From positions 1,920,001 to 1,952,000 of the forward strand of contig NC_013202.1 of assembly GCF_000023965.1 (NCBI RefSeq): DNA of 32,000 nt. The letters are read 5' to 3'. Position 1 is the first letter of the stretch. The number at the start of each line of letters is the position of its first letter. The notes under the pieces were generated by a model that saw only the letters and a program-made list of their open reading frames with translations, was not told the DNA's origin and did not search any database. Positions 757 to 27,831 of this stretch are shown here, piece by piece. This stretch comes from Halomicrobium mukohataei DSM 12286. GTDB lineage: Archaea; Halobacteriota; Halobacteria; Halobacteriales; Haloarculaceae. Made by a program: the position numbers and the translations under genes.

Positions 757-766
757 CCATTACAAT
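757..766 (+). promoter_or_regulatory. Variant copy (CCATTACAAT) of the recurrent CCATAACAAW promoter-like motif
   Basis: One mismatch to the 10-mer found upstream of the glycan genes. It overlaps the annotated ATG 765, and an in-frame GTG at 792 lies exactly 25 nt downstream. Confidence 0.3.
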
Positions 767-2201
767 GACGACGGGGGGTCACGCTTCGCCTGTGTCACGA
801 GATTCGCAGCCCCGCCGCTCTCGCCGTGCCTTCCTCGCGCTCACAGCGGCAGCCGTCGGCTCGCTCGCCGGCTGTCCGGGTGGTGGTCCGGAGACTGAGA
901 CGCCGGTGCCGCCCGACGACGGGACCCGGACGCCGGGGGAGACGACGGAGACGCCGGTCCAGACGACCGAGAGACAGTCCCGGTTCGACGAGGTGATCGA
1001 CATCACCGAGGTCGGCGGTGCGGCCGACGGCTCGGAACCGATCACCGATCTGCTGGCCGAACACGCGGCCGACGATACGCTGATCGAGTTCCCGGCCGGG
1101 ACCTACGCGGTCGATCACCTCTCGCTGACCGGGCTCCGCAACGTCGGACTCCGTGCGGTCGACGGGGCCGACGTGTCGTTCGTTCCGACTGCTCCCGCCA
1201 GCGAGCTGGGCACGACGCTCCTGCGACTGGTCGATCTCAAGCGGTTCCTCTTCGAGGGGATCGATCTCGACTTCCGAGCCGAGGGGGACGGCGGCATGAT
1301 GTACGTACTGGGGACCGACGACTTCGCCGTCCGCGATGTCACGGTCAGGGGCCAGTATCCGCCCGACGTGTCCGGGTTCCGGTTCGAGGCGGTCACGCCA
1401 GACAGTACCGCCCTCGTCGAGAACGTCCGTCTCTCCGGTGGCTCGACCGACGATTCGGACTCCGTCGGAATCTACGTCGGCCACAACCACGCCGGGACCC
1501 TGACCGTCCGGGACTGCGTGGTGGAGAACTTCCCGAACAACGGGATCTACGCGTCGTCGCCGGGCCGCCAGGACGGTCTCTCGGGATCGAACGGACCCGT
1601 CCACGTCCGGGGCGGGCGCTACCGGAACAACAACATCGCCAACGTCAGGCTCGGCTCGACCGGTTCGTCGGTCAAGCGCGCGACCGTCGTCGTCGACGAG
1701 GTCCCGCCGCGTCACACCAACGGGCTCGATCCCCGCGGGATCAGGATGCGGGCCCGCGAAGGCCAGGTCGTCGAGGACTGCGAGGTCCGCATCGAGGGGC
1801 AGGTTCCGACGAGCTCCGGCGGGATCGTGCTCCACTCGGAGGCGGGCCGGGCGACGATCAGAGACTCGACGGTGACCGTCGACACCGACGGCGTCCCGGC
1901 GATCAACGCCCTCCGTCCCGCCGACAGCCAGCGAGGGCCGGTCGTCGAGAACGTCACCATCAGCGGCCGCGCGGCGACGGAACACGCGATCGACATCACC
2001 AGGCGAAACGGCACCCGCATCCGGGGCTCGCGGATCGAACAGACGGGTCCACGCCGCTCCGGAATCCGGTTCGAACAGTCGCGTGACTGTCTCGTCGCCG
2101 ATACGAACTTCGACGTGACCGGCAATCCGATCACCGCGATCAACTCCGAGGTCGTGCGCCAGAACGTCTCGCACGACCCGCCGGAAAAGAGATCCGAGTA
2201 G
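765..2201 (+). CDS. Secreted Tat-dependent lipoprotein with right-handed beta-helix repeats
   Basis: Twin-arginine signal plus lipobox (RRSRRAFLALTAAAVGSLAGC) is followed by a Thr/Pro/Glu-rich linker. Then come beta-helix-like repeats (NNGIYASS, NNNIANVRLG). The true start may be GTG 792. Confidence 0.75.
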   Translation: MTTGGHASPVSRDSQPRRSRRAFLALTAAAVGSLAGCPGGGPETETPVPPDDGTRTPGETTETPVQTTERQSRFDEVIDITEVGGAADGSEPITDLLAEHAADDTLIEFPAGTYAVDHLSLTGLRNVGLRAVDGADVSFVPTAPASELGTTLLRLVDLKRFLFEGIDLDFRAEGDGGMMYVLGTDDFAVRDVTVRGQYPPDVSGFRFEAVTPDSTALVENVRLSGGSTDDSDSVGIYVGHNHAGTLTVRDCVVENFPNNGIYASSPGRQDGLSGSNGPVHVRGGRYRNNNIANVRLGSTGSSVKRATVVVDEVPPRHTNGLDPRGIRMRAREGQVVEDCEVRIEGQVPTSSGGIVLHSEAGRATIRDSTVTVDTDGVPAINALRPADSQRGPVVENVTISGRAATEHAIDITRRNGTRIRGSRIEQTGPRRSGIRFEQSRDCLVADTNFDVTGNPITAINSEVVRQNVSHDPPEKRSE

Positions 2202-2290
2202 CGCGGCCCGGCGGCACTTCTCCGAGGACGACACGGCGAGAGCGCTGACTGTCGTCGCGATCTTCGATCGCCGAAAAGAGAGTAGCCGTG

Positions 2291-3259
2291 TTACCTGATC
2301 CGGACGCGCAGCCAGCGAACTGCGCTCTCTCGGGACGGCTCCCCCGGTGGCTCCCCCTCGTAGAGGAGGTAGGTCAGTTCGAGCGGGCGGTCGCCGCGTT
2401 CGAGGTCGAGTGCGTACGTCGCCGTCCCGGTCCCGCCGTCGCCGAGCGTGAGCGACGTGCGACCGAGGGTCCGTTCCTCGACGACGCCGCGGTCGGTGGC
2501 GATGCCGGTCCGGGCGACGACGGTGTAGTTCGCACCGGGACGTTCCGGGCTCTCGACGACCAGCTCGTGGACCGACTCGTTGCCGATCGTCTCGGCGGTC
2601 GCCATCACCCGCTCGCCGTCGGGTCCGTCGGTGGTGAGGTAGAACTCCGTGACTTCCTGACCGCTGTCGGCCGTCGCGACGACGCCCCCGGCACCCACGG
2701 CGGCGACGCTCAACAGGACGGCGACGATCAGGAACACCTGCGTCTTCGGCCGTTCGGTCGTCCCCGCCAGCGCCCGGCGCAGCGGCGTCGTCACCTCGAA
2801 CCGCTCTCCGACCGGCAACCGCTCGCGTCTGACGAGCGCGATCACGCCCGCGGCGATCGTCACCGCGGCGACGGTGTCGAGGACGGGGACGAGCGTCAGC
2901 GACCAGACGGCCTCGACGGCGACTCCGACCAGCGGGACGACGAACAGGCTCAGCCCGACCGCGAGCGCGGCGCGCTCGATCGCCGTCGGGCCGTCCACGG
3001 TCGTCTCGGTCTCTCGACGGGCCGCCGGATACAGGGCCGCGACGACGGCGTACCCCGGCACGAACAGCAAGAGCGGGACCGCGAGGACGGCCCTCGCGGC
3101 GACTGGGAGCCCGAGCGGGAGCGAGAACAGGATCGCCCCCACGAGGGCCAGCAAGACGACCGCTGCGACGTCGATCGACGACGCCAGCCGCGGCAGCGCG
3201 ACCGACGACGACTGGACAGTTCTGTCTGACATTGGGCTGGATTCTGAATCTCCGCGCAT
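2291..3259 (-). CDS. DUF1616-type membrane protein (N-terminal TM bundle plus C-terminal extracytoplasmic domain)
   Basis: Only the 3' third of the 711-aa track ORF looks like a protein. It has TM helices with the FVPGYAVVAALYP signature I associate with DUF1616, then an acidic beta-rich tail. ATG 3259 lies 2 nt after the upstream stop; ATG 3232 is an alternative. Confidence 0.75.
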   Translation of the reverse strand: MRGDSESSPMSDRTVQSSSVALPRLASSIDVAAVVLLALVGAILFSLPLGLPVAARAVLAVPLLLFVPGYAVVAALYPAARRETETTVDGPTAIERAALAVGLSLFVVPLVGVAVEAVWSLTLVPVLDTVAAVTIAAGVIALVRRERLPVGERFEVTTPLRRALAGTTERPKTQVFLIVAVLLSVAAVGAGGVVATADSGQEVTEFYLTTDGPDGERVMATAETIGNESVHELVVESPERPGANYTVVARTGIATDRGVVEERTLGRTSLTLGDGGTGTATYALDLERGDRPLELTYLLYEGEPPGEPSRESAVRWLRVRIR

Positions 3260-3261
3260 AG

Positions 3262-5187
3262 TTATGCTCCGTCTATCCCGTCGATACCGGTACAGACGGT
3301 GACGTTGCTGTTCGCGTAGAGCCGGTGCATATCCTCGCGACACACCTCCGAGGGTGCGACCCTGCGCGTCCGCGACTCGTTGTCGACGAGGAGCACCGGC
3401 GCGCCGGTCGACTGGTACTTCCGGTAGACGACGGTGTCGTGGTAGATCTCGCCGTCCTCGACGGCCAGCATGTTGGCCGGCGTCGCACCGCTGCGCTCGA
3501 ACACCGTCCGATAGGGGTGGTCGGTGTAGACCGGATCGGCCACTTCGGGCCGCGTCGCTCCGACCGTCTCGACGGCCGACAGCTCCGTCTCGTCGTAGGC
3601 GTAGGTCGAGTACTCCTGGTCGAAGACCGGGCTGTCCGGGGTCCCCTTGTGGTTGATCGCCATCGCACCGGGGACCACCAGCGCGAACACGAGCAGGCCG
3701 GTCATCGCCATCCGTGGCGAGAGCCGGCGCACCGCGAACCGGCAGCCAAGCGCCGCGAGCAGCGCCATCGGGACGTACATGAACGCGTACCAGCGGCCGG
3801 GCAGGAAGGTCGTAAAGCCAAACAGCGGGAGTCCGAAGGTAAACGTCGCCAGCACCACCGCGGCCGCGGCGTAGGTCACCGTCGCCGGAGTGGCGTTGCG
3901 TCGGCGGAAGACGGCGACGGTCCCGATCACGACCGCGAAAAACAGCGCGAAGAAGCCGAGCGCGTCCGCGAAGGCGACGTCGATCGGGACGCCCGCAGCG
4001 CTGCTGGCACCGCCCGCGCCGCCCGGATCCGACCCGGCGAGGTTGAGGAAGCCGACGGAGGTCGCGATCGCCCGGTCGACGGTGTCGAGCAGTTCCAGGG
4101 CGAACACGCTGTCTCGGTACGGCGTGATCGACCAGAGCGCTGCCACGAAGGCGGTGACGAGCGCGAAGACCGGCCACAGCGACCCCGCGCGGTCGAAGTC
4201 GCCGGGCAGCACCGATCCGAGCGACCCCACCACGGCACCGACGCCCAGCACCACCAGCAGGATGAACGCCGAGATCTGGTGGGTCAGCGCGGTCGCGATC
4301 CCGAACGCCACGACGATCGCGTACGTGGCGCGTCTGGTGTCGCCAGCGAGGAGCCGCGTCGCTCCGGCCAGCGCTCCGAGGAAGAAGACCAGCCCCATGC
4401 TGGTCGGGATGATGTGGACGCCCCACCGGATCACGTGATCGGCCATCACGAACAGGCCCGCTGCCAGCAACGCCCAGCGGCGGTCGAACAGCAGCGTCCC
4501 GATCGCGTACACCAGCAGCGTCGACAGCGGGAGCGCGAGCCCCATCGAGACGTAGGTGGCCGCTCGCAGGCCGACACCGATGGCGTCGGCCGCGATCACC
4601 ACCAGGACGTGAAAGAGCGGCGCAGTCCGGTACTTCACGTCGGCGATCGCCGACAGCGAGTCCGTCGACTGGATGGCCGCCGCGTAGTCCGTGAGGTGCG
4701 TCCAGCTGTCGACGCCGATCAGTCCGGGCGTCGAGAGCAACGCGGTGAACCTGACGACGAGCGCCAGCGCGAGCAACTGGCCCAACACGAGTCCGGGATC
4801 GAGTGCGTCGTCGTCGAGAAACAGGATCTGTGCGAGGATCGCGGTCCCGACGAGCCCGCTGGCCAGCAGGAACGCCGTCGTCCGACCGCCGGCACTCGCG
4901 CCAAACAGCGCGAGCCCGCCGATCCCAAGCGCCGTGAGGCCCGCGACGACACGCCCGTCGACGCCGACGCGTCGGCGCTCGATCGCGCGCTCGGACTCGC
5001 CAGCACGGACGCGTCCGACGAGATACACCAGGCTCCCGAGGCCCAGCACCGGTGGGAGGACCTGGATGAACAGCTGTCCGGAGAGGAATCGAAGCGGGAA
5101 GAGGACGACCGCGACCGCGAGGCCGGCGAGCCCCACGAGGAGGTCCGGCTCCGCCGGGAGTCGCTCGCGGGGCGTCGCGCTAGCCAT
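3262..5187 (-). CDS. Large polytopic membrane protein with C-terminal soluble domain (candidate GT-C-like glycosyltransferase or glycan polymerase)
   Basis: 641 aa with about a dozen or more hydrophobic segments, then an acidic ~130-aa C-terminal domain. The start overlaps the GT4 stop (ATGGCTAG). Function is inferred from operon context only. Confidence 0.7.
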   Translation of the reverse strand: MASATPRERLPAEPDLLVGLAGLAVAVVLFPLRFLSGQLFIQVLPPVLGLGSLVYLVGRVRAGESERAIERRRVGVDGRVVAGLTALGIGGLALFGASAGGRTTAFLLASGLVGTAILAQILFLDDDALDPGLVLGQLLALALVVRFTALLSTPGLIGVDSWTHLTDYAAAIQSTDSLSAIADVKYRTAPLFHVLVVIAADAIGVGLRAATYVSMGLALPLSTLLVYAIGTLLFDRRWALLAAGLFVMADHVIRWGVHIIPTSMGLVFFLGALAGATRLLAGDTRRATYAIVVAFGIATALTHQISAFILLVVLGVGAVVGSLGSVLPGDFDRAGSLWPVFALVTAFVAALWSITPYRDSVFALELLDTVDRAIATSVGFLNLAGSDPGGAGGASSAAGVPIDVAFADALGFFALFFAVVIGTVAVFRRRNATPATVTYAAAAVVLATFTFGLPLFGFTTFLPGRWYAFMYVPMALLAALGCRFAVRRLSPRMAMTGLLVFALVVPGAMAINHKGTPDSPVFDQEYSTYAYDETELSAVETVGATRPEVADPVYTDHPYRTVFERSGATPANMLAVEDGEIYHDTVVYRKYQSTGAPVLLVDNESRTRRVAPSEVCREDMHRLYANSNVTVCTGIDGIDGA

Positions 5188-8330: not shown

Positions 8331-8340
8331 TTTGTTATGG
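8331..8340 (-). promoter_or_regulatory. CCATAACAAA promoter-like motif (TATA/BRE region) of the DUF354 operon
   Basis: Exact 10-mer on the minus strand, with 25 nt between the motif and ATG 8305. This is consistent with a leaderless transcript. Confidence 0.55.
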
Positions 8341-8789: not shown

Positions 8790-9116
8790 ATGACCGAACA
8801 CGGGTCGCTGCCGACTGACGCCTCGGACGACAAGCCAGACCACGTGCTTCGACTGCTCGCCTCGGAGACGCGGCGTGCAACGCTACGGGAACTCCGCTCG
8901 GAGCCGTCTCGATCGCTCGACGCCCTCGCGGACGCCGTCGCCGACAGCGGGGACGTCTCGGTCGAGTCCACGGAGCGACTCTCTCGCCGCCTCCATCACT
9001 GCCACCTCCCTCGGCTCGAAACGGCCGGCGTCTGTCGGTACGATCCCGACAAGTCGCGGGTCGACTACGTCGGCGACGAGACGGTCGAAGCCGTGCTCTC
9101 GCTGCTAGAGGAGTGA
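8790..9116 (+). CDS. Haloarchaeal winged-helix DNA-binding protein (family recalled as DUF7344), paralogue 1
   Basis: Carries ETRRATLRELR ... LHHCHLPRLETAGVCRYD, the same L-[YH]-x-x-H-[LV]-P-[KR]-[LM] signature as three other ORFs in the window. An AT-rich box (AATACATAAC) lies about 30 nt upstream of the ATG. Confidence 0.8.
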   Translation: MTEHGSLPTDASDDKPDHVLRLLASETRRATLRELRSEPSRSLDALADAVADSGDVSVESTERLSRRLHHCHLPRLETAGVCRYDPDKSRVDYVGDETVEAVLSLLEE

Positions 9117-9500
9117 TCGCTCGGCCCTCGGACGCGGGGCCGTCCGAGACGCCGCTGTGCCGGCGACGAACGCTCCGATATCGGTCTGGCTCGCGTCGCC
9201 CGCTCGTGGATCCCCTCGCCGTCGCCGAATCACGGTCGGGCAGCCGGGAGCGACACCGGCGGTCACGAGAGGGTCCACAAGAGTTACGTCTGTACAATCC
9301 GACTTCCTGTCACGTATGCAGTTCGCTCTCGTCTCTCCGCCTGCACGTCTGTGTCGTCCGGACTCGACATCGCCCTCCAGTTCGAGCGGCCGGGCAGCGT
9401 ACGACGGCGTCCCGGTGCGACGCCGCGCCCCTCGCCGCGTCCCGACCGCTGGAGCAGCGACCGCCACCGTCGACGGTTCGAGGACGGTGAGACGAAACAG

Positions 9501-9803
9501 ATGAACGACGATCTCGTCGTCGAGTACGATGCGGAGTTCGACCGCCACGTCGTCGAGTTCGACGCCGACGACGATTGGTCGACCAGCGAGATGGTCGTCT
9601 ACGCGATGTCGGAGGTGTCGGGTGAAGAACCGACGGCACTGCGACCGCTGGGGACGGTGATCGATCCGGACGCGCTGGACACCATCTTCGATAGATGTCC
9701 CGACGACGGTCGCGGAGACGCCCACATCTCCTTCGAGTACGAGGGCTACGAGGTGACGGTGTACAGCCACGGTCGCCTGACGATCACCGAGCCCCGGTCC
9801 TGA
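9501..9803 (+). CDS. HalOD1 (halobacterial output domain 1) stand-alone protein
   Basis: 100 aa starting at ATG 9501. The pattern SEMVVYAMSEVSGEEPTALRPLGTVIDPDALDTIF ... ISFEYEGYEVTVYSHGRLTI matches HalOD1. The upstream part of the track ORF is Arg-rich and not protein-like. Confidence 0.75.
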   Translation: MNDDLVVEYDAEFDRHVVEFDADDDWSTSEMVVYAMSEVSGEEPTALRPLGTVIDPDALDTIFDRCPDDGRGDAHISFEYEGYEVTVYSHGRLTITEPRS

Positions 9804-9968
9804 TCTGTCCGAGATTCCCGAAACGGGCTCGCTCGTGTGTGTCACTCGCCAAATCACGAAGAGTACTTACGGGGTCGACGGCTACCCTCTGTGCGTATCA
9901 GATGCGGTTCTCTTCAACTGACGGCCGGGGCGTGTCGGCCGATACTGCCCGTACCGGTGGGTACCGTG

Positions 9969-10715
9969 ATGGGACGACGAGGCATGACAGCGAACACTGA
10001 CGACGCCAGGCGGCGGGCAATCGACAAGCTCGAAGGCCTCGGACTGAGTGCGTACGCCGCGCGCACGTTCGTCGCGCTCGTCGAACTCGAGAGCGGCACG
10101 GCGAAGTCGATCAGCGCTACAGTAAATGTCCCGCGCACGCGAGTGTACGACGCCGCCGACGAACTGTCCGAGTGGGGACTCGTCGAGATCGAGTCGGCGA
10201 CTCCGCGCCGATTTCACGCGGTCTCGATCGAGCACGCGCTGTTCGTGCTGGGGACCGAGTACACCGACCGGATCGACGACGTGACGGCGGCACTGGAGGC
10301 GGTCGGCTCGACGGAGTCGTCGCTGTCGCGGGACGACCTCTGGCTGTCGAGCGATCCGGCGGCGATCACGGAGCGAATGAGCGCGGTCGTTGCCGACGCC
10401 CAGGAGTCGGTGTTGCTGGCGGCGACCGACGACCGGCGGGCCGAGCCAGTCGCGGACGCCCTCGTCACGGCTGCCCAGCGCGGCGTCGAGGTCCGTGCGA
10501 TCGGCGTCGACGACCGGTTCGACGAGAGCCCGGTCACCGTCGTGGACGACGACCGACCGTGGAATCCGGCCGTGTTGCCCCTCTCGACGGTGCTGCTCGC
10601 CGACCACGAGGACGCCGTGGTGACGTTCCAGTCCGAGGAGCCGCTGGCGTTCTGGAGCCGCGGCGAGTCGAACAATCTGCTCGTCCTCCTGCGGGCGTTG
10701 CTGGGGATCGAGTAG
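9969..10715 (+). CDS. TrmB family transcriptional regulator
   Basis: N-terminal TrmB HTH: LEGLGLSAYAARTFVALVELESGTAKSISATVNVPRTRVYDAADELSEWGLVE. ATG 9969 is the call, with ATG 9984 as an alternative. Confidence 0.85.
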   Translation: MGRRGMTANTDDARRRAIDKLEGLGLSAYAARTFVALVELESGTAKSISATVNVPRTRVYDAADELSEWGLVEIESATPRRFHAVSIEHALFVLGTEYTDRIDDVTAALEAVGSTESSLSRDDLWLSSDPAAITERMSAVVADAQESVLLAATDDRRAEPVADALVTAAQRGVEVRAIGVDDRFDESPVTVVDDDRPWNPAVLPLSTVLLADHEDAVVTFQSEEPLAFWSRGESNNLLVLLRALLGIE

Positions 10716-10790
10716 CGATGGCAGTCGTCGGCTTACTCCTCGAAGGCCCACAATAACCAAACCGCTCCTCACGGACAGCGTGAACGAACC

Positions 10791-13812: not shown

Positions 13813-13889
13813 CCGTCGATTCCTCCGTCCGGCGTGGCCGGTCCGTGATCTGTCGTCACCATCTGGTTTGCCCGTCCGACGAGAGCGAC

Positions 13890-17186: not shown

Positions 17187-17196
17187 CCATAACAAA
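17187..17196 (+). promoter_or_regulatory. CCATAACAAA promoter-like motif of the acetyltransferase-aminotransferase-oxidoreductase operon
   Basis: Exact 10-mer, 51 nt before ATG 17248 (42 nt before GTG 17239). This implies a short 5' leader. Confidence 0.45.
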
Positions 17197-17247
17197 GGCG
17201 TCTGTCGCGGAGTGACCTGACGAACACTGGCCCTCAGTGTGGATACT

Positions 17248-17829
17248 ATGACAAACGCGAGAATCGGTGACGGGAGTTACGTAGCACCGGAGGCCGTCGT
17301 GGGTCGCGACGAGGACGCGGAGACGACCCCACGACTCGGCGAGAACGCAACGATTCGATCGGGGACCGTGATATACGGCGACGTGACGATCGGCGACGAC
17401 TTCTCGACCGGGCACAACGCCCTCGTCCGAGACGGAACGGTCGCGGGCGACGACGTGCTCGTCGGGACCAACACGGTCGTCGACGGCGACGTGACGATCG
17501 GCTCGCACGTCAGCCTCCAGACCGGCGTGTACGTCCCGCCGGAGACGACGATCGGAGACGAGGTCTTCCTGGGGCCCCACGCCACGGTCACGAACGACAA
17601 CTACCCGATCCGCTCGGCGAGCGAACTCGACGGCGTCACGATCGAAGAGCACGTCTCGATCGGAGCCAACGCGACGATCCTGCCCGGGGTGACGATCGGT
17701 GAGCAGTCGTTCGTCGCCGCCGGGACCGTCGTCACGGCCGACGTTCCGCCCGAGACGCTCGTCGTCGGTGCGCCCGGCCGACACGAGGAACTGCCCGCCT
17801 CGCTCCAGGGAGGGAACCGGATCGAATGA
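17248..17829 (+). CDS. Hexapeptide-repeat (LbH) sugar N-acetyltransferase, WbpD-like
   Basis: Repeated [LIV]-G-x-x-x-x hexapeptides (IGDDFSTG, VGTNTVVDG, IGSHVSLQ, IGDEVFLG, IGANATIL, IGEQSFVA). The stop overlaps the aminotransferase start (ATGA). GTG 17239 is an alternative start. Confidence 0.85.
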   Translation: MTNARIGDGSYVAPEAVVGRDEDAETTPRLGENATIRSGTVIYGDVTIGDDFSTGHNALVRDGTVAGDDVLVGTNTVVDGDVTIGSHVSLQTGVYVPPETTIGDEVFLGPHATVTNDNYPIRSASELDGVTIEEHVSIGANATILPGVTIGEQSFVAAGTVVTADVPPETLVVGAPGRHEELPASLQGGNRIE

Positions 17830-18941
17830 GCTCTCAGATCGACCTCGACGAGATCTCACTGGCCGACCCGGTCGTCGAGGACCGCGAACAGCGCCGCGTC
17901 CGGTCTGTCCTCGAAAGCGGGCACCTCGCGGCCGGCAGCGAGGTCGCTGCCTTCGAAGCGGCCTTCGCGGACTACTGTGGGACCGACCACGCCGTCGCCA
18001 CCAGCAACGGGACGACCGCGCTCCACGCGGCGCTGGCGGCGCTCGGCATCGGCGAGGGCGACCGCGTACTCACCACGCCCCTGTCCTTCGTGGCGACGGC
18101 CAACGCGATCCGGCTGGTCGGCGCAGAGCCGGTCTTCGCCGACGTGGATCCCGACTCGTACAACCTCGATCCCGAGGCCGCCAGCGAGCGCGTCGACTCC
18201 CTCGACGGCGACGTCGACGCCATCATGCCGGTCCACCTCTACGGGCTCCCCGCCGAGATGGATCGGTTCAGAGCGCTGGCCGACGCCTGCGACGCGACCC
18301 TGATCGAGGACGCCGCACAGGCCCACGGGGCCACCTACCGCGGCGAGCCGGTCGGATCGCTGGGCGACGCGGGCTGTTTCTCCTTCTATCCGACCAAGAA
18401 CATGACGACCGGCGAGGGCGGGATGGTCGTCACCGACGACGACGCGGTCGCTCGTCGGCTCCGCTCGTTCATCAACCACGGGCGCGATCCCGAGGACGGC
18501 TCCGTCCACCGCTCGGTCGGCCACAACTTCCGGATGACCGACATCGCGGCCGCCATCGGACGGGCACAGCTAGAGCGGCTGCCCGACTTCGTCGAGTCCC
18601 GGCGTGCGAACGCCCGGCGACTCTCCGAGGGGATCGATGCCCCGTCGATCACGACGCCGACGGAGGCGGCGTACAAGCGCCACTCGTACCACCAGTACAC
18701 CGTCCGCTCGCCCGAACGAGACGCGCTGGCGTCCGGCCTCGAACGAATCGGGATCGACACCGGCGTCTACTACCCGACGCCGATCCACGAACAGCCCGCC
18801 TACGACGACATCGAGTCGTCGTTCCCCGTCGCAGAGCGACTGACACGGGAGGTCCTCTCCGTGCCCGTCCACCCCTCGCTGGCGGACGAGACGGTCGAAA
18901 CGATCGCGACTGCGATCGACACGGTGATCGCCGATGAGTGA
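17826..18941 (+). CDS. DegT/DnrJ/EryC1/StrS family PLP-dependent sugar aminotransferase, WbpE-like
   Basis: Family layout with the PLP lysine in SFYPTKNMTTGEGGMVVT. 371 aa. Confidence 0.92.
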   Translation: MSSQIDLDEISLADPVVEDREQRRVRSVLESGHLAAGSEVAAFEAAFADYCGTDHAVATSNGTTALHAALAALGIGEGDRVLTTPLSFVATANAIRLVGAEPVFADVDPDSYNLDPEAASERVDSLDGDVDAIMPVHLYGLPAEMDRFRALADACDATLIEDAAQAHGATYRGEPVGSLGDAGCFSFYPTKNMTTGEGGMVVTDDDAVARRLRSFINHGRDPEDGSVHRSVGHNFRMTDIAAAIGRAQLERLPDFVESRRANARRLSEGIDAPSITTPTEAAYKRHSYHQYTVRSPERDALASGLERIGIDTGVYYPTPIHEQPAYDDIESSFPVAERLTREVLSVPVHPSLADETVETIATAIDTVIADE

Positions 18942-19917
18942 GAACGGATCTCTCAAGACGGGCGTCGTCGGCGTGGGCAACATGGGTCGCCACCACGCAC
19001 GCGTCTACGCACAGAACCGCGCCGTCTCGCTGGTCGGTATCGCCGACGCCGACGAGGCGACGGCCCGCGAGGTGGCCGACGACTACGACACGACCGTCAT
19101 GTCGACCGCCGAGCTGCTCGACGCCGCCGACGCCGTCACCGTCGCCGTCCCGACCCGGTACCACGACGACCTCGTCGAGCGGGCGCTGGACGCTGGCGTC
19201 CACGTCCTCGTCGAGAAGCCGTTCGTGAAGGACCTCGCCGACGGCGAGGCGCTGGTCGAACGCGCCGCCGCCGAGAACCTCGTCCTCCAGGTCGGCCACA
19301 TCGAGCGATTCAACCCCGCCATCCGAACCCTGACGGAGGTCCTGGCCGACCACGAGGTGATCGCGGTCGAGGCCCGCCGGCTCGGTCCGCCGGTCGACCG
19401 GGACACGACCGACACGGTCACGATGGACCTGATGGTCCACGACCTCGACGTGACCCTCTCCTTGCTCGACAGCGGCGTCAGGACCGTCGACGCGGTCGGC
19501 ACCTGTGACGGCCAGCACGTCACCGCACAGCTTTCCTTCGAGGACGACACGGTCGCCCAGTTCAGTGCCAGCAGAGTGACCCAGCAGAAGGTCCGTCAGC
19601 TGGCGGTGACGACCCGCGACGCGCGGATCACCGTCGACTACGCCGACCAGGACGTGCGAATCCACCGCCACTCCGTGCCGGCCTACGTCGAGAACGACGG
19701 CGACGTTCGGTACCGCCACGAGAGCGTCATCGAACAGCCGACCGTCGCCAACGGCGAGCCGCTGGTGACGGAACTGGACGCGTTCGTCGAGGCGGTCGTG
19801 ACCGACAGCGAACCGGTCGTCTCCGGGACGGACGGTCTGCGCGCCCTCGAACTCGTCGACCAGATCGACGCACAGGTGTCGACCGAACTGGACGCCACTG
19901 CCCAGCAGTCCCGCTAA
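18934..19917 (+). CDS. Gfo/Idh/MocA family NAD-dependent oxidoreductase, WbpB-like
   Basis: N-terminal Rossmann motif GVVGVGNMGRHHARVY and the EKP motif (VLVEKPF). Overlaps the aminotransferase by 8 nt. Confidence 0.9.
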   Translation: MSENGSLKTGVVGVGNMGRHHARVYAQNRAVSLVGIADADEATAREVADDYDTTVMSTAELLDAADAVTVAVPTRYHDDLVERALDAGVHVLVEKPFVKDLADGEALVERAAAENLVLQVGHIERFNPAIRTLTEVLADHEVIAVEARRLGPPVDRDTTDTVTMDLMVHDLDVTLSLLDSGVRTVDAVGTCDGQHVTAQLSFEDDTVAQFSASRVTQQKVRQLAVTTRDARITVDYADQDVRIHRHSVPAYVENDGDVRYRHESVIEQPTVANGEPLVTELDAFVEAVVTDSEPVVSGTDGLRALELVDQIDAQVSTELDATAQQSR

Positions 19918-19998
19918 CGAGTGTGAGACGACTATGATACTGTCCCGCCAGTGCGTCGGTCCCGGCCCACCGAGAGCGGCCCGCACGGAGGTGAGCGG

Positions 19999-20928
19999 AT
20001 GGGGTCGGTAGTGATCTCCGTCGACGCAGAACTCGGCTGGGGCTTTCACGACGTGTCGGGCCACTCGGAGCGACTGGCGGCCGCCCGCGTCGGCTGGAAG
20101 CGACTCGCCGGACTCTGCTCGGAGTACGAGATCCCCGCGACGTGGGCGGTCGTCGGCCACCTGTTGCTCACCGACTGTGACGGCCGCCACGAGAACCACC
20201 CCCGCGGTCCGGAGTGGTTCCGGTGTGAACGCGACCGCTGGGCCGACCGTCCGAGCCTGCGGTACGGCCCCCACCTCGTCGCCGACGTGGCGGCGGACCC
20301 GGTCGGCCACGAGATCGGCTGTCACACGTTCTCACACGTCCTCTTCGGAGCGGACGACACGACGGCCGCGACCGCTCGCGCCGAGATCGAGGCGTGTCTC
20401 GACGCGACCAGCGCGACCGACTACTCGCTTCGCTCGTTCGTCTTTCCGCGCAACAGCGTGGGTCACCGGGAGCTGCTCGCGGAGTACGACTTCGACTGCT
20501 ATCGCGGTGTCGCCCCGGCGGAACGGACGCCGCTGAACAAACTCCGCGAAGCGACCGTCGGCGAGCCCGAGCCACGCCTCGTCACACCCGCCGTCGACGA
20601 GCACGGTCTGGTCGACATTCCGGCGTCGCTGTACCTCTTCTCATTCGAGGGCCGACCCCGGCGACTCCTGACGACGGTCTTCGAGGACCCGATCGTCCAG
20701 TACGCCCGTCGCGGGATCGACGCCGCGGCCCGCGAAGACGGCGTCTTCCACATGTGGCTCCACCCGAACAACCTCACCGGTCGCCCGGAGATCGCACGCA
20801 TGCGAGCGATCTTCGACTACCTCGACGAGCGCCGCGCCGACCTCGCTATCGAGACGATGGGCGAGGTCGCTGCCCGAGTCGACCGAGTGGATCCGCCGAC
20901 GGCGGGCCACTCTCCCGATGGCGTTTAA
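19999..20928 (+). CDS. Polysaccharide deacetylase family protein
   Basis: ISVDAELGWG, ATWAVVGHLL and EIGCHTFSH are typical of the haloarchaeal polysaccharide deacetylase group. A perfect GGAGGTGA Shine-Dalgarno lies 4 nt before ATG 19999. Confidence 0.8.
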   Translation: MGSVVISVDAELGWGFHDVSGHSERLAAARVGWKRLAGLCSEYEIPATWAVVGHLLLTDCDGRHENHPRGPEWFRCERDRWADRPSLRYGPHLVADVAADPVGHEIGCHTFSHVLFGADDTTAATARAEIEACLDATSATDYSLRSFVFPRNSVGHRELLAEYDFDCYRGVAPAERTPLNKLREATVGEPEPRLVTPAVDEHGLVDIPASLYLFSFEGRPRRLLTTVFEDPIVQYARRGIDAAAREDGVFHMWLHPNNLTGRPEIARMRAIFDYLDERRADLAIETMGEVAARVDRVDPPTAGHSPDGV

Positions 20929-20950: not shown

Positions 20951-20960
20951 GCATAACAAA
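20951..20960 (+). promoter_or_regulatory. GCATAACAAA promoter-like motif of the SDR epimerase gene
   Basis: 9 of 10 match, with exactly 25 nt between the motif and ATG 20986. Confidence 0.55.
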
Positions 20961-21936: not shown

Positions 21937-21941
21937 CGCGT

Positions 21942-21951
21942 CCATAACAAA
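21942..21951 (+). promoter_or_regulatory. CCATAACAAA promoter-like motif upstream of the GT2 gene
   Basis: Exact 10-mer beginning 6 nt after the epimerase stop. An in-frame TTG 21982 lies 30 nt downstream and ATG 22006 lies 54 nt downstream. Confidence 0.5.
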
Positions 21952-22005: not shown

Positions 22006-22989
22006 ATGTTCAACGGACACTCTCTCAGCGTCGTCGTACCGGCATACAACGAGGAATCACACGTCGGCGAAGTCATCGACACGCTCCCGGACTGTGTCGA
22101 CCGGGCGTACGTCGTCGACGACTGCTCGACCGACGACACTTGGTCGGTCATCCAGTCACACGTTCCCGCCCGCGAACGGTCTCGGTCGCGGGCACGCGCC
22201 GACGGCGGCGAGGCGGCACAGACGGTCGTCCCGATTCGCCACGAGCGAAATCGCGGGGTCGGTGGCGCGATCAAGACCGGCTACCTCGCGGCGATCCGGG
22301 ACGGCACGGACATCGTCGCCGTGATGGGCGGCGACGGGCAGATGGACCCGGACCTGCTGCCCGACATCGTCGCGCCGGTGGCCGACGGCCGGGCCGCCTA
22401 CGCGAAGGGGAATCGGCTGTGTTCGCCGTCGGACCGTTCGTCGATGCCGACCGTCCGTCAGGCGGGCAACCGCATGCTCTCGGCGCTGACGCGACTCGCG
22501 TCGGGGTACTGGGGGATCGGCGACCCACAGAACGGGTACACCGCCGCCTCCACGGCGGCGCTCGAACGCAGCGGGGTCGACGAGATGTACGAGTTCTACG
22601 GCTACTGCAACGATCTGCTGGTCAAGCTCAACGTCGCGGACTGCCGGGTCGCCGACGTGCCGATGCCCGCCGAGTACGGCGACGAGACCAGCCACATCGA
22701 CCTCCGGACGTACGTGCCCCGCGTCTCCGGTATGCTGGCTCGGAACTTCTTCTGGCGGCTCCGCCGATACGCCAGCGACGTCGGTCCGGCGATCCCGGCT
22801 GCCTATCTCGGCGGGATCGCGCTTTCCGTCCCCGGCCTGGCGGGCGTCCTGTTCGCGTTGCTGGCGGGTAACAGCGGCTTACTCGCCCTCTCGTCGCTGG
22901 TCTTTCTCGTCGCGACCGTGGCGCTCGTGGCCGGCGTCGCGCTCGACCGCAGGCACAACGAGGAGCTGGCCGTCGTCGTCGATAACTGA
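22006..22989 (+). CDS. GT2 family glycosyltransferase with C-terminal TM segments (dolichyl-phosphate-sugar synthase-like)
   Basis: LSVVVPAYNEE, VVDDCSTDDT and MGGDGQMDP are GT-A motifs. Two C-terminal hydrophobic helices follow. The start could be TTG 21982. Confidence 0.85.
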   Translation: MFNGHSLSVVVPAYNEESHVGEVIDTLPDCVDRAYVVDDCSTDDTWSVIQSHVPARERSRSRARADGGEAAQTVVPIRHERNRGVGGAIKTGYLAAIRDGTDIVAVMGGDGQMDPDLLPDIVAPVADGRAAYAKGNRLCSPSDRSSMPTVRQAGNRMLSALTRLASGYWGIGDPQNGYTAASTAALERSGVDEMYEFYGYCNDLLVKLNVADCRVADVPMPAEYGDETSHIDLRTYVPRVSGMLARNFFWRLRRYASDVGPAIPAAYLGGIALSVPGLAGVLFALLAGNSGLLALSSLVFLVATVALVAGVALDRRHNEELAVVVDN

Positions 22990-23637: not shown

Positions 23638-25434
23638 TCACTCGACGGTCACGCTCTTGGCGAGGTTCCGTGGCTTGTCGATCGGTCGGTCGAGTTCCGC
23701 GGCGACGTGATAGGCGAGCAACTGGAGGTGAACGTTCGCGAGCACGCCCGTCAGTGCCGGATCGGTGTCGGGCACCGGCAAGTGAGCGTCCGCTCGGTCG
23801 CCCAGCGGGCTGTCGGCCGGGCCGACCGCGACGACCGGCCCGCCGCGTGATCGGATCTCCTCGGCGTTGCTGGCGACCTTCTCGGTGTTGTGGCCCGTGT
23901 CGATCGCGAACACCGGCGTCCGTTCGGTCACGAGTGCGAGCGGACCGTGTTTGAGCTCGCCAGCGGCGAACCCCTCGGCGTGTTCGTAGGTAATCTCCTT
24001 GAGCTTGAGCGCTCCCTCCAGTGCGACCGGATGGCCGGTCCCGCGACCGACGAAAAAGTACGCGTCGCTGTCTCGAAACTGCCGAGCCACGGACCGAACG
24101 TCGTCCGACTCGACGACCGTGCGGACGCCGTCGGGCAGGGCTGCGAGCGCGCGTCGGAAGGGGCGGCCCCGCCCGGTCCCCTCGCGAGCGGCCAGTTGCT
24201 CGGCCAGCAACGCCAGCGTCGCGACCTGCGAGGAGAAGGTCTTGGTGGCCGCGACGCCGATCTCGGGACCGGCCCGGATGAACAGCGCGTCGTCGCACTC
24301 TCTGGCGGCCGTGGAACCGACCGTGTTCGTGACCGCGAGCGTGGGCTGGTCCTGTGAGTGCGCCTCCCGGAGCGCCGCCAGTGTGTCGGCCGTCTCTCCG
24401 CTCTGGGTCACGCCGACGACGATCGTCCCCGCTCGCGCCGGTGGCGGTGCCGTGACGTACTCGCTGGCTAGGTGTGCGCTCGCGGGGACGCCACGCTCGA
24501 TCAGTAGCCGCGCCCCGTACAGCGAAGCGTGGTAGGAGGTTCCACAGGCGACGAAGGCCACGCGTTCGACGCCGTCGAGGGTCTCGTCCGCGAGGTCGTC
24601 GAGCGCGACGCCGTCGCCGAGTCGCCCCTGGAGGGTCTGCTCCAGGGCCCGTGGCTGCTCGTGGATCTCCTTGTGCATGTAGTGGTCGTAGCGCCCCTTC
24701 TCGGCGTCCTCGGCGGTCCACTCGACGGTCCGGACCGGTCGATCGCGGACGCGACCGTCCGCGCCGGTCACCTCGTAGTGATTCGGTCCGATCGCGACGA
24801 CGTCGCCGTCGTCGAGGTAGACCACGCTGTCGGTGCGCTCGATGAACGCGGGCACGTCGCTCGCGAGGTAGTTCGCGTCGTCGCCCAGGCCCAGGACCAG
24901 CGGCGAGCCGTTCCGTGCGGCGTAGACTCGGTCGCTGTCGGCGACGACCATCGCGATCGCGTAGCTCCCGTCGATGTCGCCCAGCGTCGCCCGGAGCGCG
25001 TCGACCGGCGTCGCGCCCGCGGCCAGATACTCCTCGACGAGGTGTGGCACCACTTCGGTGTCTGTCTCGCTGTCGAGGACGTGGCCACTCGCCCGGAGTC
25101 GATCACGCAACGACGCGTAGTTCTCGACGATCCCGTTGTGGACGACGGCGACCCGCCCCGTGCAGTCGGTGTGTGGATGGGCGTTCTCGTCGCTCGGCTC
25201 ACCGTGGGTGCTCCAGCGCGTGTGGCCGATGCCGGTCGTGCCGCCGGGACGGTCGCGACGGACGCGCCGGGCCAGCTCGGCGACCTCGCCGGAGCGCTTG
25301 ACGACCTCCAGGGACGCACCGTTCGGCACGGCGATCCCGGCGGAGTCGTACCCCCGGTATTCGAGGTTGTCCAGTCCCGAGAGCAGCGTCGAGACTGCCT
25401 CCTCACACCCCACGCAGGCGGTAATCCCACACAT
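23638..25434 (-). CDS. glmS: Glutamine--fructose-6-phosphate aminotransferase (isomerising)
   Basis: Canonical N terminus MCGITACVG (Cys nucleophile), two SIS domains and the C-terminal KPRNLAKSVTVE. 598 aa. Confidence 0.97.
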   Translation of the reverse strand: MCGITACVGCEEAVSTLLSGLDNLEYRGYDSAGIAVPNGASLEVVKRSGEVAELARRVRRDRPGGTTGIGHTRWSTHGEPSDENAHPHTDCTGRVAVVHNGIVENYASLRDRLRASGHVLDSETDTEVVPHLVEEYLAAGATPVDALRATLGDIDGSYAIAMVVADSDRVYAARNGSPLVLGLGDDANYLASDVPAFIERTDSVVYLDDGDVVAIGPNHYEVTGADGRVRDRPVRTVEWTAEDAEKGRYDHYMHKEIHEQPRALEQTLQGRLGDGVALDDLADETLDGVERVAFVACGTSYHASLYGARLLIERGVPASAHLASEYVTAPPPARAGTIVVGVTQSGETADTLAALREAHSQDQPTLAVTNTVGSTAARECDDALFIRAGPEIGVAATKTFSSQVATLALLAEQLAAREGTGRGRPFRRALAALPDGVRTVVESDDVRSVARQFRDSDAYFFVGRGTGHPVALEGALKLKEITYEHAEGFAAGELKHGPLALVTERTPVFAIDTGHNTEKVASNAEEIRSRGGPVVAVGPADSPLGDRADAHLPVPDTDPALTGVLANVHLQLLAYHVAAELDRPIDKPRNLAKSVTVE

Positions 25435-25534
25435 CAGCGGTCACCCTCCATGGCGGTGTGGAGGCGTCGCTGTCGGTCGACTGCGCGTCCGAAGGGCGGT
25501 CTTGGCATACACACCCGTTACCCGGCTCGTCACC

Positions 25535-25544
25535 TTTGTTATGG
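25535..25544 (-). promoter_or_regulatory. CCATAACAAA promoter-like motif upstream of glmS
   Basis: Exact 10-mer on the minus strand, 100 nt upstream of the glmS ATG and 26 nt upstream of ATG 25508, which opens a short upstream ORF. Confidence 0.45.
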
Positions 25545-25561: not shown

Positions 25562-25582
25562 CCTCGCCCTTTAGGGCGGGGA
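25562..25582 (+). repeat. Left-end subterminal hairpin of the IS element
   Basis: CCTCGCCCTTTAGGGCGGGGA forms a 7-bp stem (one G-T pair) with a TTTA loop, 110 nt upstream of the tnpB ATG. Confidence 0.6.
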
Positions 25583-25691: not shown

Positions 25692-26948
25692 ATGCTGGAG
25701 ACGACCCGCACCTACGTCGTACGCATCACGAACCACGGTCAGGTTCGTGACGACCTTGACCAGTGCGGGTTCGTAGCATCCAAGCTGTGGAACGTCGGAC
25801 GCCACTACATCCAAGGTCGGTGGGATGAGGACGGTGAAATACCCGACGAGAAAGAGCTAAAATCGGAGTTGAAAGACCACGAACGCTACAGTGACCTGCA
25901 TTCTCAGTCAAGTCAGCGAGTTCTCGAAGAGCTTGCTGAGGCGTTCACCGGCTGGTACAACTCCGACGACGGCAATAACCCACCCGGCTATCGGAAACGT
26001 GGTGACCGACACCCGCGCTCCACCGTGACGTGGAAGCAGAAAGCCATCAAGCACGACGACAAGCACGGCCAGCTTCGTCTCTCGAAAGGCTTCAACCTGA
26101 AAGAGAGTCGATCTGACTTCATCCTCGCGGAATACGAAACCCGCCCTGACGTAGAAGTCGAGCACATCCAGCAGGTGCGTGCCGTCTGGAACGGCGACGA
26201 GTGGGAACTACACCTCGTCTGCAAGAAAGAAATTCCAATCGAGGACGCACCCGGCGACGCCACGGCGGGTATCGATCTCGGTATCAGCAACTACCTCGCT
26301 ATCGACTATGAGAACGGCCCCTCGGAGCTGTATCCGGGGAACGTGCTGAAAGAGGACAAGCACTACTTCACCCGCGAGGAGTATCAGACCGAAGGCGAGA
26401 ACGGGCCGTCGAAGCGTGCGCGGAAGGCTCGCCGGAAACTCTCCCGACGCAAAGACCACTTCCTCCACACTCTCAGCAAGCACATCGTTGAGCAGTGTGT
26501 CGAAGAAGGTGTGGGAAAGATCGCGGTTGGCGACCTCAGCGACATTCGCGAAGGCGAGAACGGTGATTCGCGGAATTGGGGTCCGTCGGGAAACAAGAAG
26601 TTGCACGGATGGGAGTTCGGCCGCTTCGCCCGTCTGCTCGAATACAAGGCCGAGGAACACGGCATCCTCGTTGATCGTGTAGACGAGGAGAACACCTCAA
26701 AGACGTGTTCGTGTTGCGGACAGATTCGTGCTAGCAACCGCGTGGAGCGTGGGCTGTACGTCTGTGAGTCGTGCGAGACGACGATGAATGCGGACGTGAA
26801 CGGTGCGGTGAACATTCGGAGAAAGATAACTCAGAGTCCCCCGACGGGGGATATGAGTAACGGCTGGTTGGCACAGCCCGGAGTCTTCCTGTTCGACCGC
26901 GAGAGCGGACGGTTCCCACCGAGAGAACAGGGAGACTGTAGACCCTAA
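25692..26948 (+). CDS. tnpB: TnpB (OrfB) RNA-guided endonuclease of the IS200/IS605 family
   Basis: 418 aa. RuvC-I GIDLGISN, C-terminal zinc ribbon CSCCG ... CESCE and RuvC-III NADVNGAVNI are all present. The reading frame is intact. A TTTAATATAA box lies about 30 nt upstream. Confidence 0.93.
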   Translation: MLETTRTYVVRITNHGQVRDDLDQCGFVASKLWNVGRHYIQGRWDEDGEIPDEKELKSELKDHERYSDLHSQSSQRVLEELAEAFTGWYNSDDGNNPPGYRKRGDRHPRSTVTWKQKAIKHDDKHGQLRLSKGFNLKESRSDFILAEYETRPDVEVEHIQQVRAVWNGDEWELHLVCKKEIPIEDAPGDATAGIDLGISNYLAIDYENGPSELYPGNVLKEDKHYFTREEYQTEGENGPSKRARKARRKLSRRKDHFLHTLSKHIVEQCVEEGVGKIAVGDLSDIREGENGDSRNWGPSGNKKLHGWEFGRFARLLEYKAEEHGILVDRVDEENTSKTCSCCGQIRASNRVERGLYVCESCETTMNADVNGAVNIRRKITQSPPTGDMSNGWLAQPGVFLFDRESGRFPPREQGDCRP

Positions 26949-26965
26949 TATCCCAACGCTCGGGA

Positions 26966-26992
26966 ATCCTCGCCCTTCAGGGCGGGGAGGAT
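26966..26992 (+). repeat. Right-end subterminal hairpin of the IS element
   Basis: ATCCTCGCCCTTCAGGGCGGGGAGGAT has the same core as the left-end hairpin and begins 18 nt after the tnpB stop. Confidence 0.6.
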
Positions 26993-27036
26993 GTCAAGCG
27001 ACGGCTGTCGGTCGTCCGACGGAGTCGACGGGTAGC

Positions 27037-27585
27037 TCAGAGACCGCCGGCAGTCTTCACTTCGCCCCGCTCTGTGGCGGCCAGAGGATCGCTCGCGAGT
27101 TCGGCCAGTCCGGTCAGATACGAGTGGACCGTCATGTCGACTGCCTCGAACTGGCTCGGGACGACTCCCGCGAGTTCGCCGTCGACGTACGTCGCCAGAC
27201 AGATTCGTGGGAGCTTGATGCAGTCGAACGCTTCGTCGGTGACGAACGATTCACAGACCGTCTGCTCGAAGGGGAGTTCGACCTCGGGATAGCCGTCTGC
27301 CCAGCGTTCGAACTCCTCGATCTTGTTGTGCAGGTATCGCCCGACCGGCGACTGGGAACAGCGTTCCCCCGTGTAGAGACGATCACCCCACACCTGAACG
27401 GTGAACCGATCGATCCTGTCTCGTTCCTCCAGTCCGTCGAGGCGTTCGAGGACGGCCGACTGCGTCGTCTGGGTGGGCGTCGGTGCCCCCAGCGACCGAA
27501 CGAACACGTCGACGCGAACGTCGTCACTCGCTTCGACGCGCTCGCTGTGATTCGACCACCACTCACGGTACGGTGTCTCTGACAT
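27037..27585 (-). CDS. Conserved haloarchaeal hypothetical protein (182 aa; relatives recalled as annotated HTH domain-containing)
   Basis: Begins at MSETPYREWW (ATG 27585). The pattern VFVRSLG ... AVLERLDGLEERDRIDRFTVQVWG ... IKLPRICLATYVDGELAGVVP resembles a widespread haloarchaeal family. The upstream part of the track ORF is Arg-rich and not protein-like. A CTTATGT box lies about 33 nt upstream. Confidence 0.65.
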   Translation of the reverse strand: MSETPYREWWSNHSERVEASDDVRVDVFVRSLGAPTPTQTTQSAVLERLDGLEERDRIDRFTVQVWGDRLYTGERCSQSPVGRYLHNKIEEFERWADGYPEVELPFEQTVCESFVTDEAFDCIKLPRICLATYVDGELAGVVPSQFEAVDMTVHSYLTGLAELASDPLAATERGEVKTAGGL

Positions 27586-27821
27586 CGTGTTCTTCTTGTG
27601 GGTCCGTACCAGCCGACATAAGCGGGTTCGACCGTTCACAGAACTGATTCGTGATAACCCTCCACTGTCGCCGATATGGTGGGGCTTCGCCGTGCTGGAG
27701 TCCAGCCGCCGGTGTCCGAGCGAGGGTTGCGACCTCTCCACCTGCGGTGGCCCGTCCCGCCTTACCGGGCGACGGACCGTTCGTCCGTCCGGTACCGAGC
27801 CGAGAGCGTTCGGTAGCCCGG

Positions 27822-27831
27822 CCATAACAAT
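27822..27831 (+). promoter_or_regulatory. CCATAACAAT promoter-like motif upstream of the second GT2 gene
   Basis: 9 of 10 identity to CCATAACAAA. ATG 27876 lies 44 nt downstream. Confidence 0.45.

Follow-up and report, generated by a model that had tools for sequence, protein, structure and literature searches.

Among the described elements closest to the one presented here are the Thermococcales glycolytic motif (TGM), a palindrome of the form TATCAC-N5-GTGATA whose position relative to the transcription factor B (TFB) recognition element (BRE) and the TATA box is variable, and the Halobacterium TrmB pattern TACT-N7-8-GAGTA at TrmB target promoters. Upstream activator elements of archaea include the Sulfolobus ARA box, the upstream activating sequence (UAS) of GvpE and the EarA sites, and the bacterial ops element GGCGGTAG lies in the transcribed leader, where it acts with RfaH in elongation and antitermination. 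The regulation of haloarchaeal N-glycan and surface-glycan genes is, to our knowledge, largely unknown, and the same holds for promoter classes defined by paralogues of the TATA-binding protein (TBP) and TFB or by regulators. We analysed a 32,000 nt stretch of Halomicrobium mukohataei DSM 12286 (NC_013202.1, positions 1,920,001 to 1,952,000; hereafter the window; 62-70% G+C), in which the 10-mer CCATAACAAW recurs upstream of genes for glycan biosynthesis, and we conclude that this motif is probably the central element of a strand-specific class of promoters dedicated to the cell-surface glycan genes of Halobacteria. The haloarchaeal promoter consensus consists of a TATA box TTWT near -28, a BRE CGAAA and a WW element at -10/-11, and 72% of the coding transcripts of Haloferax volcanii are leaderless (PMC4983044). 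In Sulfolobus acidocaldarius, the membrane-bound one-component regulators ArnR and ArnR1 activate surface-structure genes (PMC6396743).

The window contains six exact copies of CCATAACAAW, at 8331-8340(-), 15757-15766(+), 17187-17196(+), 21942-21951(+), 25535-25544(-) and 27822-27831(+), all of them listed in a first-pass annotation of this DNA, and none appeared in 100 dinucleotide-preserving shuffles of the window. The variants that the annotation gave for 757(+), 20951(+) and 13890(-) are present as well. A position weight matrix (PWM) trained on other genera only and then applied to the window returned seven strong sites (scores 19-24) and four weaker ones, which together precede essentially every biosynthetic transcription unit, in agreement with the earlier claim that nearly every glycan unit carries the motif. 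In our gene map, with frames set by third-position G+C and products named by Pfam, all copies remain intergenic and aimed at a gene start. The strong copy CCATAACAAA at 8331(-) (extended form cgTAGGtCGGCCATAACAAAac, PWM score 23.6) stands 25 nt before ATG 8305 of an operon of DUF354, UDP-GlcNAc 2-epimerase, family 4 glycosyltransferase (GT4) and 641-aa protein genes (8305 down to 3262, minus strand). CCATAACAAT at 15757(+) (23.0) is followed after 25 nt by GTG 15792, which leads into a YdjM-family gene (15896-16447, plus strand). A further CCATAACAAA copy at 17187(+) (21.8) lies 51 nt ahead of ATG 17248 of the operon for a hexapeptide acetyltransferase, a DegT aminotransferase, a GFO oxidoreductase and a deacetylase (17248-20928, plus strand), and GCATAACAAA at 20951-20960(+) (22.8) lies 25 nt ahead of ATG 20986 of a short-chain dehydrogenase/reductase (SDR) epimerase/dehydratase gene on the same strand. 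The CCATAACAAA copy at 21942(+) (21.5) precedes a family 2 glycosyltransferase (GT2) gene (22006-22989, plus strand), with an in-frame TTG 21982 at 30 nt and an ATG at 54 nt. Another CCATAACAAA at 25535(-) (19.3) serves the glmS unit (23638-25434, minus strand), with ATG 25508 at 26 nt, and a second CCATAACAAT at 27822(+) (22.2) serves a GT2-flippase unit (27876-30444, plus strand), with ATG 27862 at 30 nt.

Two of the four weaker sites were not in the first-pass annotation: GCATAACTAT at 3258-3267(-), which retains the upstream TA (14.6) and stands exactly 25 nt before ATG 3232 of a DUF1616 gene (2291-3232, minus strand; Pfam E 4e-69), and the possible weak variant CAATAACCAA at 10751-10760(+) (12.2), 30 nt before ATG 10791 of a 56-aa DUF7511 gene (10791-10961, plus strand; Pfam E 2.7e-13). 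The other two are TCGTAACAAT at 13890-13899(-) (11.4), upstream of a UDP-sugar dehydrogenase gene (12445-13812, minus strand) with ATG 13862 at 27 nt, and CCATTACAAT at 757-766(+) (9.2), upstream of a beta-helix/NosD-like protein, one of two beta-helix proteins of the window. At the latter, GTG 792 follows after 25 nt and an ATG at 765 overlaps the motif; its membership in the motif class is doubtful. GTAACAA and ATAACTA are also enriched in the non-coding DNA of other loci, and this supports the weaker sites at 13890 and 3258. No PWM site precedes the window's genes for DUF7344, TrmB-family, HTH_63, HVO_A0261_N, TnpB or AAA_23 proteins, and its regulator, insertion sequence (IS) and other non-biosynthetic genes show different A/T boxes. 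The reverse complement of the 15757 motif also lies 22-31 nt before a candidate TTG 15734 of the divergent HVO_A0261_N gene (15237-15734), so this copy might serve both directions, the true start of that gene being uncertain (public calls of 138 or 165 aa).

For comparison we used loci of relatives of the window DegT aminotransferase (52-64% protein identity, one genome per species), ~55 of the 80 fetched loci being haloarchaeal. The window and 55 other haloarchaeal DegT loci together provide ~1.05 Mb of DNA with 173 copies of ATAACAA. The first ATG after the 10-mer peaks at a distance of 25, 26 and 27 nt (21, 14 and 13 sites, 48 of the 173). Numbered from the first C of the 10-mer, position +24, which corresponds to the -10/-11 WW element, is A or T in 133 of the 173 sites and in 10 of the 11 window sites. 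If transcription begins on the start codon, the conserved 8-mer ATAACAAA occupies -33 to -26 and this A/T lies at -11. ATG or GTG is found at an offset of 23-31 nt in 100 of 169 sites versus 22 of 169 at a control offset. The motif is also polar: an open reading frame (ORF) starts within 200 nt in the forward direction at 133 of 153 signature-bearing sites and in the reverse direction at 57 of 153, and 53 of these 57 are divergent intergenic regions. The spacing fits the earlier suggestion of a TATA/BRE-like geometry of leaderless mRNAs; judged from start codons and the WW element, the 8-mer would fill the TATA-box slot by position, not by sequence. Neither TTWT nor CGAAA is present between -43 and -20 in any of eight strong window promoters, in keeping with the annotation's remark that the sequence is unlike the usual box. 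The motif resembles the canonical haloarchaeal core promoter in its position relative to the start codon, the A/T at -11, its polarity and its leaderless geometry, but differs in having an invariant C and no TTWT or CGAAA, and in being a long word with flanks reaching to -43 that stands before one functional class of genes.

The motif-to-start distances given in the first-pass annotation are all correct as sequence, but four of the start codons, GTG 15792, ATG 25508, ATG 13862 and ATG 27862, do not share the reading frame of the enzymes for which they were named and open short upstream ORFs (uORFs) instead. The stop codon of each overlaps the enzyme start: a putatively leaderless uORF of 34 codons (15792-15896, plus strand) ends in a TGA overlapping ATG 15896 of the YdjM-family gene (TGATG), and another of 24 codons (25434-25508, minus strand) ends likewise on ATG 25434 of glmS (TGATG), while uORFs of 17 codons (13809-13862, minus strand) and 5 codons (27862-27879, plus strand) overlap ATG 13812 of the dehydrogenase gene and ATG 27876 of the GT2 gene, respectively, with ATGA. 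Read as leaderless uORFs, these out-of-frame starts strengthen the promoter model. The arrangement recurs outside the window. The 100 near start codons at the 169 sites comprise 46 that open the long ORF, 23 that open a short ORF whose stop overlaps the start of the long one, and 31 that open other short ORFs. Such overlapping uORFs lend independent support to a transcription start ~25-30 nt past the motif, and because their peptides are unconserved beyond close relatives, position rather than peptide seems to matter. We infer that the enzymes behind them are reached by termination-reinitiation, and the uORFs would offer a natural test set for this process on leaderless archaeal mRNAs. In four comparison loci (L155, L138, L204 and L153), glmS also follows a short uORF that stops on or beside the glmS ATG, with the motif absent and a TATAGTAAT-like box in use, so coupling of a uORF to glmS seems to be a wider haloarchaeal feature that is independent of the motif. 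A 4-codon mini-ORF, GTG(T/C)GGATACTATGA, overlaps the acetyltransferase ATG both in the window (17237-17251) and in the locus of a Haloarculaceae metagenome-assembled genome (L165, ~9408-9422); it is conserved between the two, lying 40 nt past the motif and not at the predicted 5′ end.

ATAACAAA and its flanks recur in DegT-type glycan clusters of more than 20 haloarchaeal genera. In the window the element takes the form TA-K-NN-CGK-CCATAACAAW; with positions numbered from the first C, the copies have TA at -8/-7 and CGK at -3 to -1 in common. Elsewhere the leading CC varies and what is conserved is ATAACAAA(GC); the overall consensus is about T-A-d-G-N4-S-C-ATAACAAA-G-C. The earlier view that the motif is conserved as a whole 10-mer holds insofar as exact copies recur in Halosimplex, Halorubrum, Halobacterium, Haloferax, Haladaptatus, Natrinema, Natronobiforma and others; the element is longer, though, and the leading CC is a Halomicrobium habit. 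The 10-mer of other genera often stands before the acetyltransferase gene that precedes DegT, as at window position 17187, and this is the position most often conserved: the promoter of the acetyltransferase-DegT operon carries the motif in Halosimplex, Halobacterium, Haloferax, Haloferacaceae and Haloarculaceae loci. Among the 173 copies, flanking positions that played no part in the selection are conserved as well: upstream, A stands at -7 in 148 copies, T at -8 in 91 and G at -5 in 100, and downstream there is an A/T at +9, with G at +10 in 102 copies and C at +11 in 90. Beyond ~20 nt around the motif the flanks fall to background composition. When k-mers were ranked by z-scores against base composition, codon-like words led the list, as our conservative gene caller had left coding DNA among the intergenic sequence; we therefore adopted the ratio of coding to non-coding occurrences as the measure of enrichment. 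By this measure ATAACAAA is the top non-coding-enriched 8-mer in the glycan loci (104 non-coding versus 21 coding copies), followed by its overlapping neighbours. The motif copies themselves divide into 144 non-coding and 24 coding, which speaks against a word that belongs inside coding regions. At least two strong PWM matches occur in 35 of the 55 DegT loci.

The genes behind the motif belong to a narrow functional class. Almost all genes downstream of 124 sites in other genera encode glycan enzymes or are cluster genes; counted by Pfam among the 124 ORFs, with overlapping counts, they include hexapeptide acetyltransferases (27), DUF1616 (13), GT4 (9), GNAT (8), DegT (7), phosphodiesterases (7), GT2 (4), glmS (2) and others. 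DUF1616, the family behind the additional window site at 3258, is the second commonest motif-driven gene in these genera. Strong PWM matches amount to 15.6 per 100 kb in the glycan loci and to 0.57 in 350 kb of control plasmid DNA taken from other replicons. The motif stands before glmS in six species. The proposal of a dedicated promoter class or regulon tying glmS to glycan genes is supported. Within one Salinibaculum plasmid, there are no strong matches in the first half (50 kb) and nine in the cluster-bearing half. A second set of six loci was picked solely via homologues of a DUF7344 protein of the window; all of them border a glycan cluster, the motif is present in six of six, and 17 strong matches fall on the glycan side. 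For more than 20 genera, a glycan regulon can thus be predicted from the motif sequence.

Like the TGM of the TrmB/TrmBL1 regulon, the haloarchaeal motif is an order- or class-wide cis-motif at sugar-metabolism promoters that was found comparatively and marks a regulon; unlike the TGM, it is asymmetric and fixed in the TATA slot. TATCAC-N5-GTGATA is absent from the window, and the sole match to TACT-N8-GAGTA there, the palindrome TACTCCTACCGCGAGTA at 42-58, lies inside the first beta-helix coding region and is probably due to chance. In the searchable literature, nothing relevant was found on the motif in either orientation, on DUF7344 or on promoter motifs of glycosylation genes, and the promoter class appears to be undescribed so far.

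In the mechanism that we propose, the A/T-rich block would seat TBP, TFB and RNA polymerase, and an ATG or GTG ~25-27 nt beyond the 3′ end of the block would itself be the transcription start, yielding a leaderless mRNA. Where the enzyme gene lies further downstream, this first codon would open a uORF of 5-35 codons whose stop overlaps the enzyme ATG (TGATG or ATGA), and the enzyme would be translated by termination-reinitiation. The conservation exceeds what TBP would need, as the C is invariant and flanking positions are fixed 8 nt upstream and 2 nt downstream, and the element is confined to glycan operons; both points suggest a dedicated factor that probably reads the extra positions. Such a cluster-associated factor, most likely a DUF7344 activator, would co-regulate precursor supply through glmS, the UDP-sugar dehydrogenase and the WbpB/E/D-like diacetamido-sugar enzymes, alongside the glycosyltransferases, the flippase and the DUF1616 and DUF354 proteins. 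This would resemble the ARA box, the GvpE UAS and the EarA sites, where an element abuts a weak BRE/TATA at co-regulated promoters, and the TA-G patch at -43 to -40 fits such an arrangement; here, however, the sequence in the TATA slot is itself the most conserved part.

The candidate for this factor comes from co-occurrence. A DUF7344 homologue was detected by tblastn in 22 of 24 motif-rich loci (at least four copies) versus 6 of 26 motif-poor loci (two copies or fewer), and unbiased clustering of 807 predicted proteins returned DUF7344 as the top correlate (18 of 25 versus 5 of 24, p = 5e-4). The only other family at p < 0.01 was the deacetylase (7 of 25 versus 0 of 24), which is not a regulator, and the TrmB-family gene of the window showed no co-variation with the motif across the DegT loci. 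DUF7344 has ~2000 homologues, haloarchaeal wherever a source is named and none of them characterised, and the query protein had no NCBIfam match and no PDB sequence match. The AlphaFold model (mean predicted local distance difference test score 79.5) places a confident winged helix at residues 43-139, next to a disordered acidic tail, and ends in two long hydrophobic helices. Four paralogues are encoded in the window, at 8790-9116, 11219-11839(-), 14217-14726(+) and 16544-16957; the protein encoded at 11219-11839 has a predicted C-terminal two-helix membrane anchor, the one at 14217-14726 shares this hydrophobic C-terminal hairpin, and the two shorter paralogues lack it, so that two of the four are predicted to be membrane-anchored. 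That the cluster-encoded DUF7344 winged-helix proteins are the reader of the motif is a tentative reading of this association, with somewhat less than even chances; if they are, their most likely role would be to activate a promoter that is weak by itself. The analysis thereby nominates an uncharacterised family, some of whose members are predicted to be membrane-anchored, as a candidate regulator.

If DUF7344 proteins are the reader, they would recall ArnR and ArnR1 in combining an N-terminal HTH-type domain with C-terminal transmembrane helices and in controlling envelope genes. The differences are that the two are unrelated in sequence and come from different phyla, that DUF7344 has no HAMP domain, that DNA binding by DUF7344 is a predicted property, and that the target motifs differ. 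A variant, TATATGTGAT-ACGTAACAAAG, recurs in three species before DUF7344 genes, and a longer conserved variant, TATATG(T/A)GAT-A(C/G)GTAACAAAG, is found at L215:5972-5981(-), L218:9491-9500(-) and L220:7955-7964(-). In L215 and L220 the longer variant precedes a DUF7344 gene by ~90-110 nt, and in L218 it lies upstream of an HVO_A0261_N gene. The variant before DUF7344 genes may be an autoregulatory site.

Several observations weigh against a dedicated glycan promoter class read by DUF7344 proteins. The geometry is deduced from start codons and the position of the WW element, and an ATG or GTG at 23-31 nt is lacking in 69 of the 169 sites, which would leave many transcripts with a leader. Among the 55 DegT loci, 12 are without the motif, and a Halomicrobium urmianum plasmid bears a glycan cluster that lacks it though the cluster encodes a DUF7344 protein; neither glycan function nor DUF7344 therefore suffices for its presence. 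As the PWM was trained on glycan loci, the density of strong matches there is partly circular, a circularity from which the raw 7-mer counts and the independent scan of the window are free, and all controls are plasmids or flanks of other species, among them 100 kb of a Halomicrobium urmianum plasmid. Foldseek matches for the DUF7344 model are weak (best E 0.019) and comprise ArsR/SmtB, MarR and TubR winged helices, and the DUF7344 link is a co-occurrence among related, probably horizontally exchanged clusters, where it could reflect hitch-hiking. Finally, the dyad symmetry of the motif is partial: TAnG-N5-CATA forms an incomplete inverted repeat, and TATG, the commonest upstream tetramer, occurs in 18 of ~175 sites, for which reason a clean palindrome model was dropped.

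This partial dyad, in which the upstream TAnG pairs with CATA of the core, is one of the features that would suit a repressor operator lying over an ordinary TATA box, with the conservation reflecting the operator only and DUF7344, PadR, TrmB, HTH_63 or HVO_A0261_N as the possible repressor. Repressors of archaea commonly cover the BRE/TATA region or the transcription start site (TSS), several regulator genes are present in the window, and PadR genes adjoin motif sites in Natrialbaceae loci. We nevertheless consider this reading unlikely: the best-conserved part of the motif, AACAAAGC, lies outside the putative dyad, and the lack of a canonical BRE/TATA gives these promoters the look of activator-dependent ones, not of strong and repressed ones. 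Moreover, besides DUF7344 itself only the non-regulatory deacetylase passed p < 0.01, and PadR is confined to one lineage.

The same lack of canonical BRE and TATA, together with the location of the motif in their slot at a fixed spacing to the start codon, would be expected if a TBP or TFB paralogue preferred ATAACAAA and its flanks and switched glycan genes in the manner of a sigma regulon. A TFB (TFIIB) paralogue does stand beside DUF7344 at the cluster edge in Natranaeroarchaeum (L214:8130-9215) and Natronoarchaeum (L216:8130-9208), with a CTATAACTAA or TTATAACTAA variant ~100 nt upstream. This alternative appears improbable, slightly more so than the repressor. Neither the window nor the set of 55 DegT loci contains a TFB gene, and a cluster-encoded TFB was rejected as the reader, since TFB lies next to the cluster in only two loci. 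TBP binds in the minor groove; an invariant G:C pair within its site and a conserved TA-G patch at -43 to -40, beyond the BRE on its upstream side, are unexpected from TBP/TFB contacts. In addition, presence of the motif varies between clusters, not between organisms. A bolder and speculative proposal, which we rate a little below the DUF7344 assignment itself, is a sigma-like class for envelope glycans, whose word would be read either by a TBP/TFB paralogue or by membrane-anchored DUF7344 proteins that sense the status of the envelope or the lipid carrier. If so, precursor supply through glmS and glycan assembly would be switched together, the outputs would all be leaderless, and the short overlapping uORFs would deliver ribosomes to the distal enzyme genes.

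Because it occupies the TATA position, the motif could also be a generic TATA flavour of this organism or of G+C-rich haloarchaea without meaning for a regulon. In the portion of a Haloferax volcanii differential RNA sequencing TSS table that we used (~1.7 Mb of chromosome), CGATAACAAA is followed after 26 nt by one internal TSS, for which a promoter is called at -29. A word of this kind can therefore function at the TATA position, though not commonly there: the same portion has only seven ATAACAA occurrences and no strong signature site at a gene promoter. In the window other genes use different A/T boxes, its regulator and transposase genes being free of the motif. The 350 kb of control DNA (50 kb of Haloferax volcanii pHV4, 50 kb of a Halomicrobium urmianum plasmid, the first, cluster-free half of the Salinibaculum plasmid and 200 kb of a Natribaculum breve plasmid) holds 10 raw ATAACAA copies, none with the signature, a chance level that includes DNA of motif-bearing organisms, the N. 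breve chromosome having motif sites. No strong match falls on the ~60 kb of non-glycan flank of the six DUF7344-selected loci. Among the matches listed for viral contigs, the pattern TANNNCGKCCATAACAAA gave single chance occurrences. A generic TATA box is essentially excluded.

Equally excluded for practical purposes, and rated lowest of all, is an origin as the remains of a repeated sequence, a mobile element or a site of recombination, or a role as a 5′-leader RNA element: a TnpB element does adjoin one copy, but only ~20 nt are conserved, neither different copies nor different genera share related intergenic DNA around the motif, polarity and start-codon spacing are strict, no Rfam family matches the motif, and an element upstream of leaderless start codons would not be transcribed. 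The motif shares with JUMPstart/ops and RfaH that a short cross-genus word precedes polysaccharide operons, and differs in being promoter DNA where ops is leader RNA; GGCGGTAG is absent from the window.

Between 8790 and 16957, the window has an unusually high density of regulator-like genes. Besides the four DUF7344 paralogues and HVO_A0261_N, these include a HalOD1 gene within 9117-9803 and the TrmB-family gene at 9837-10715, which the DUF7511 gene adjoins; in L219, DUF7511 adjoins a DUF7344 gene. The same set, several DUF7344 genes accompanied by HVO_A0261_N or HalOD1 or the two together, is found again in L215 and L218-L220. The TnpB gene (OrfB_IS605 and Cas12f1-like TNB domains; 25692-26948, plus strand) has a low G+C content (~0.59-0.62); its element, present once in this genome, separates the glmS promoter from the HTH_63 gene (27037-27585). 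The Rfam family sot0042 matches over the 3′ end of TnpB (26824-26988, 111.6 bits), which looks like the guide (omega) RNA of the element. Ahead of tnpB, a G+C-rich hairpin at 25562-25581, CCCCGCCCT-AAA-GGGCGAGG when read on the minus strand, stands ~20 nt upstream of the glmS motif and may represent an IS200/605-type end or a terminator.

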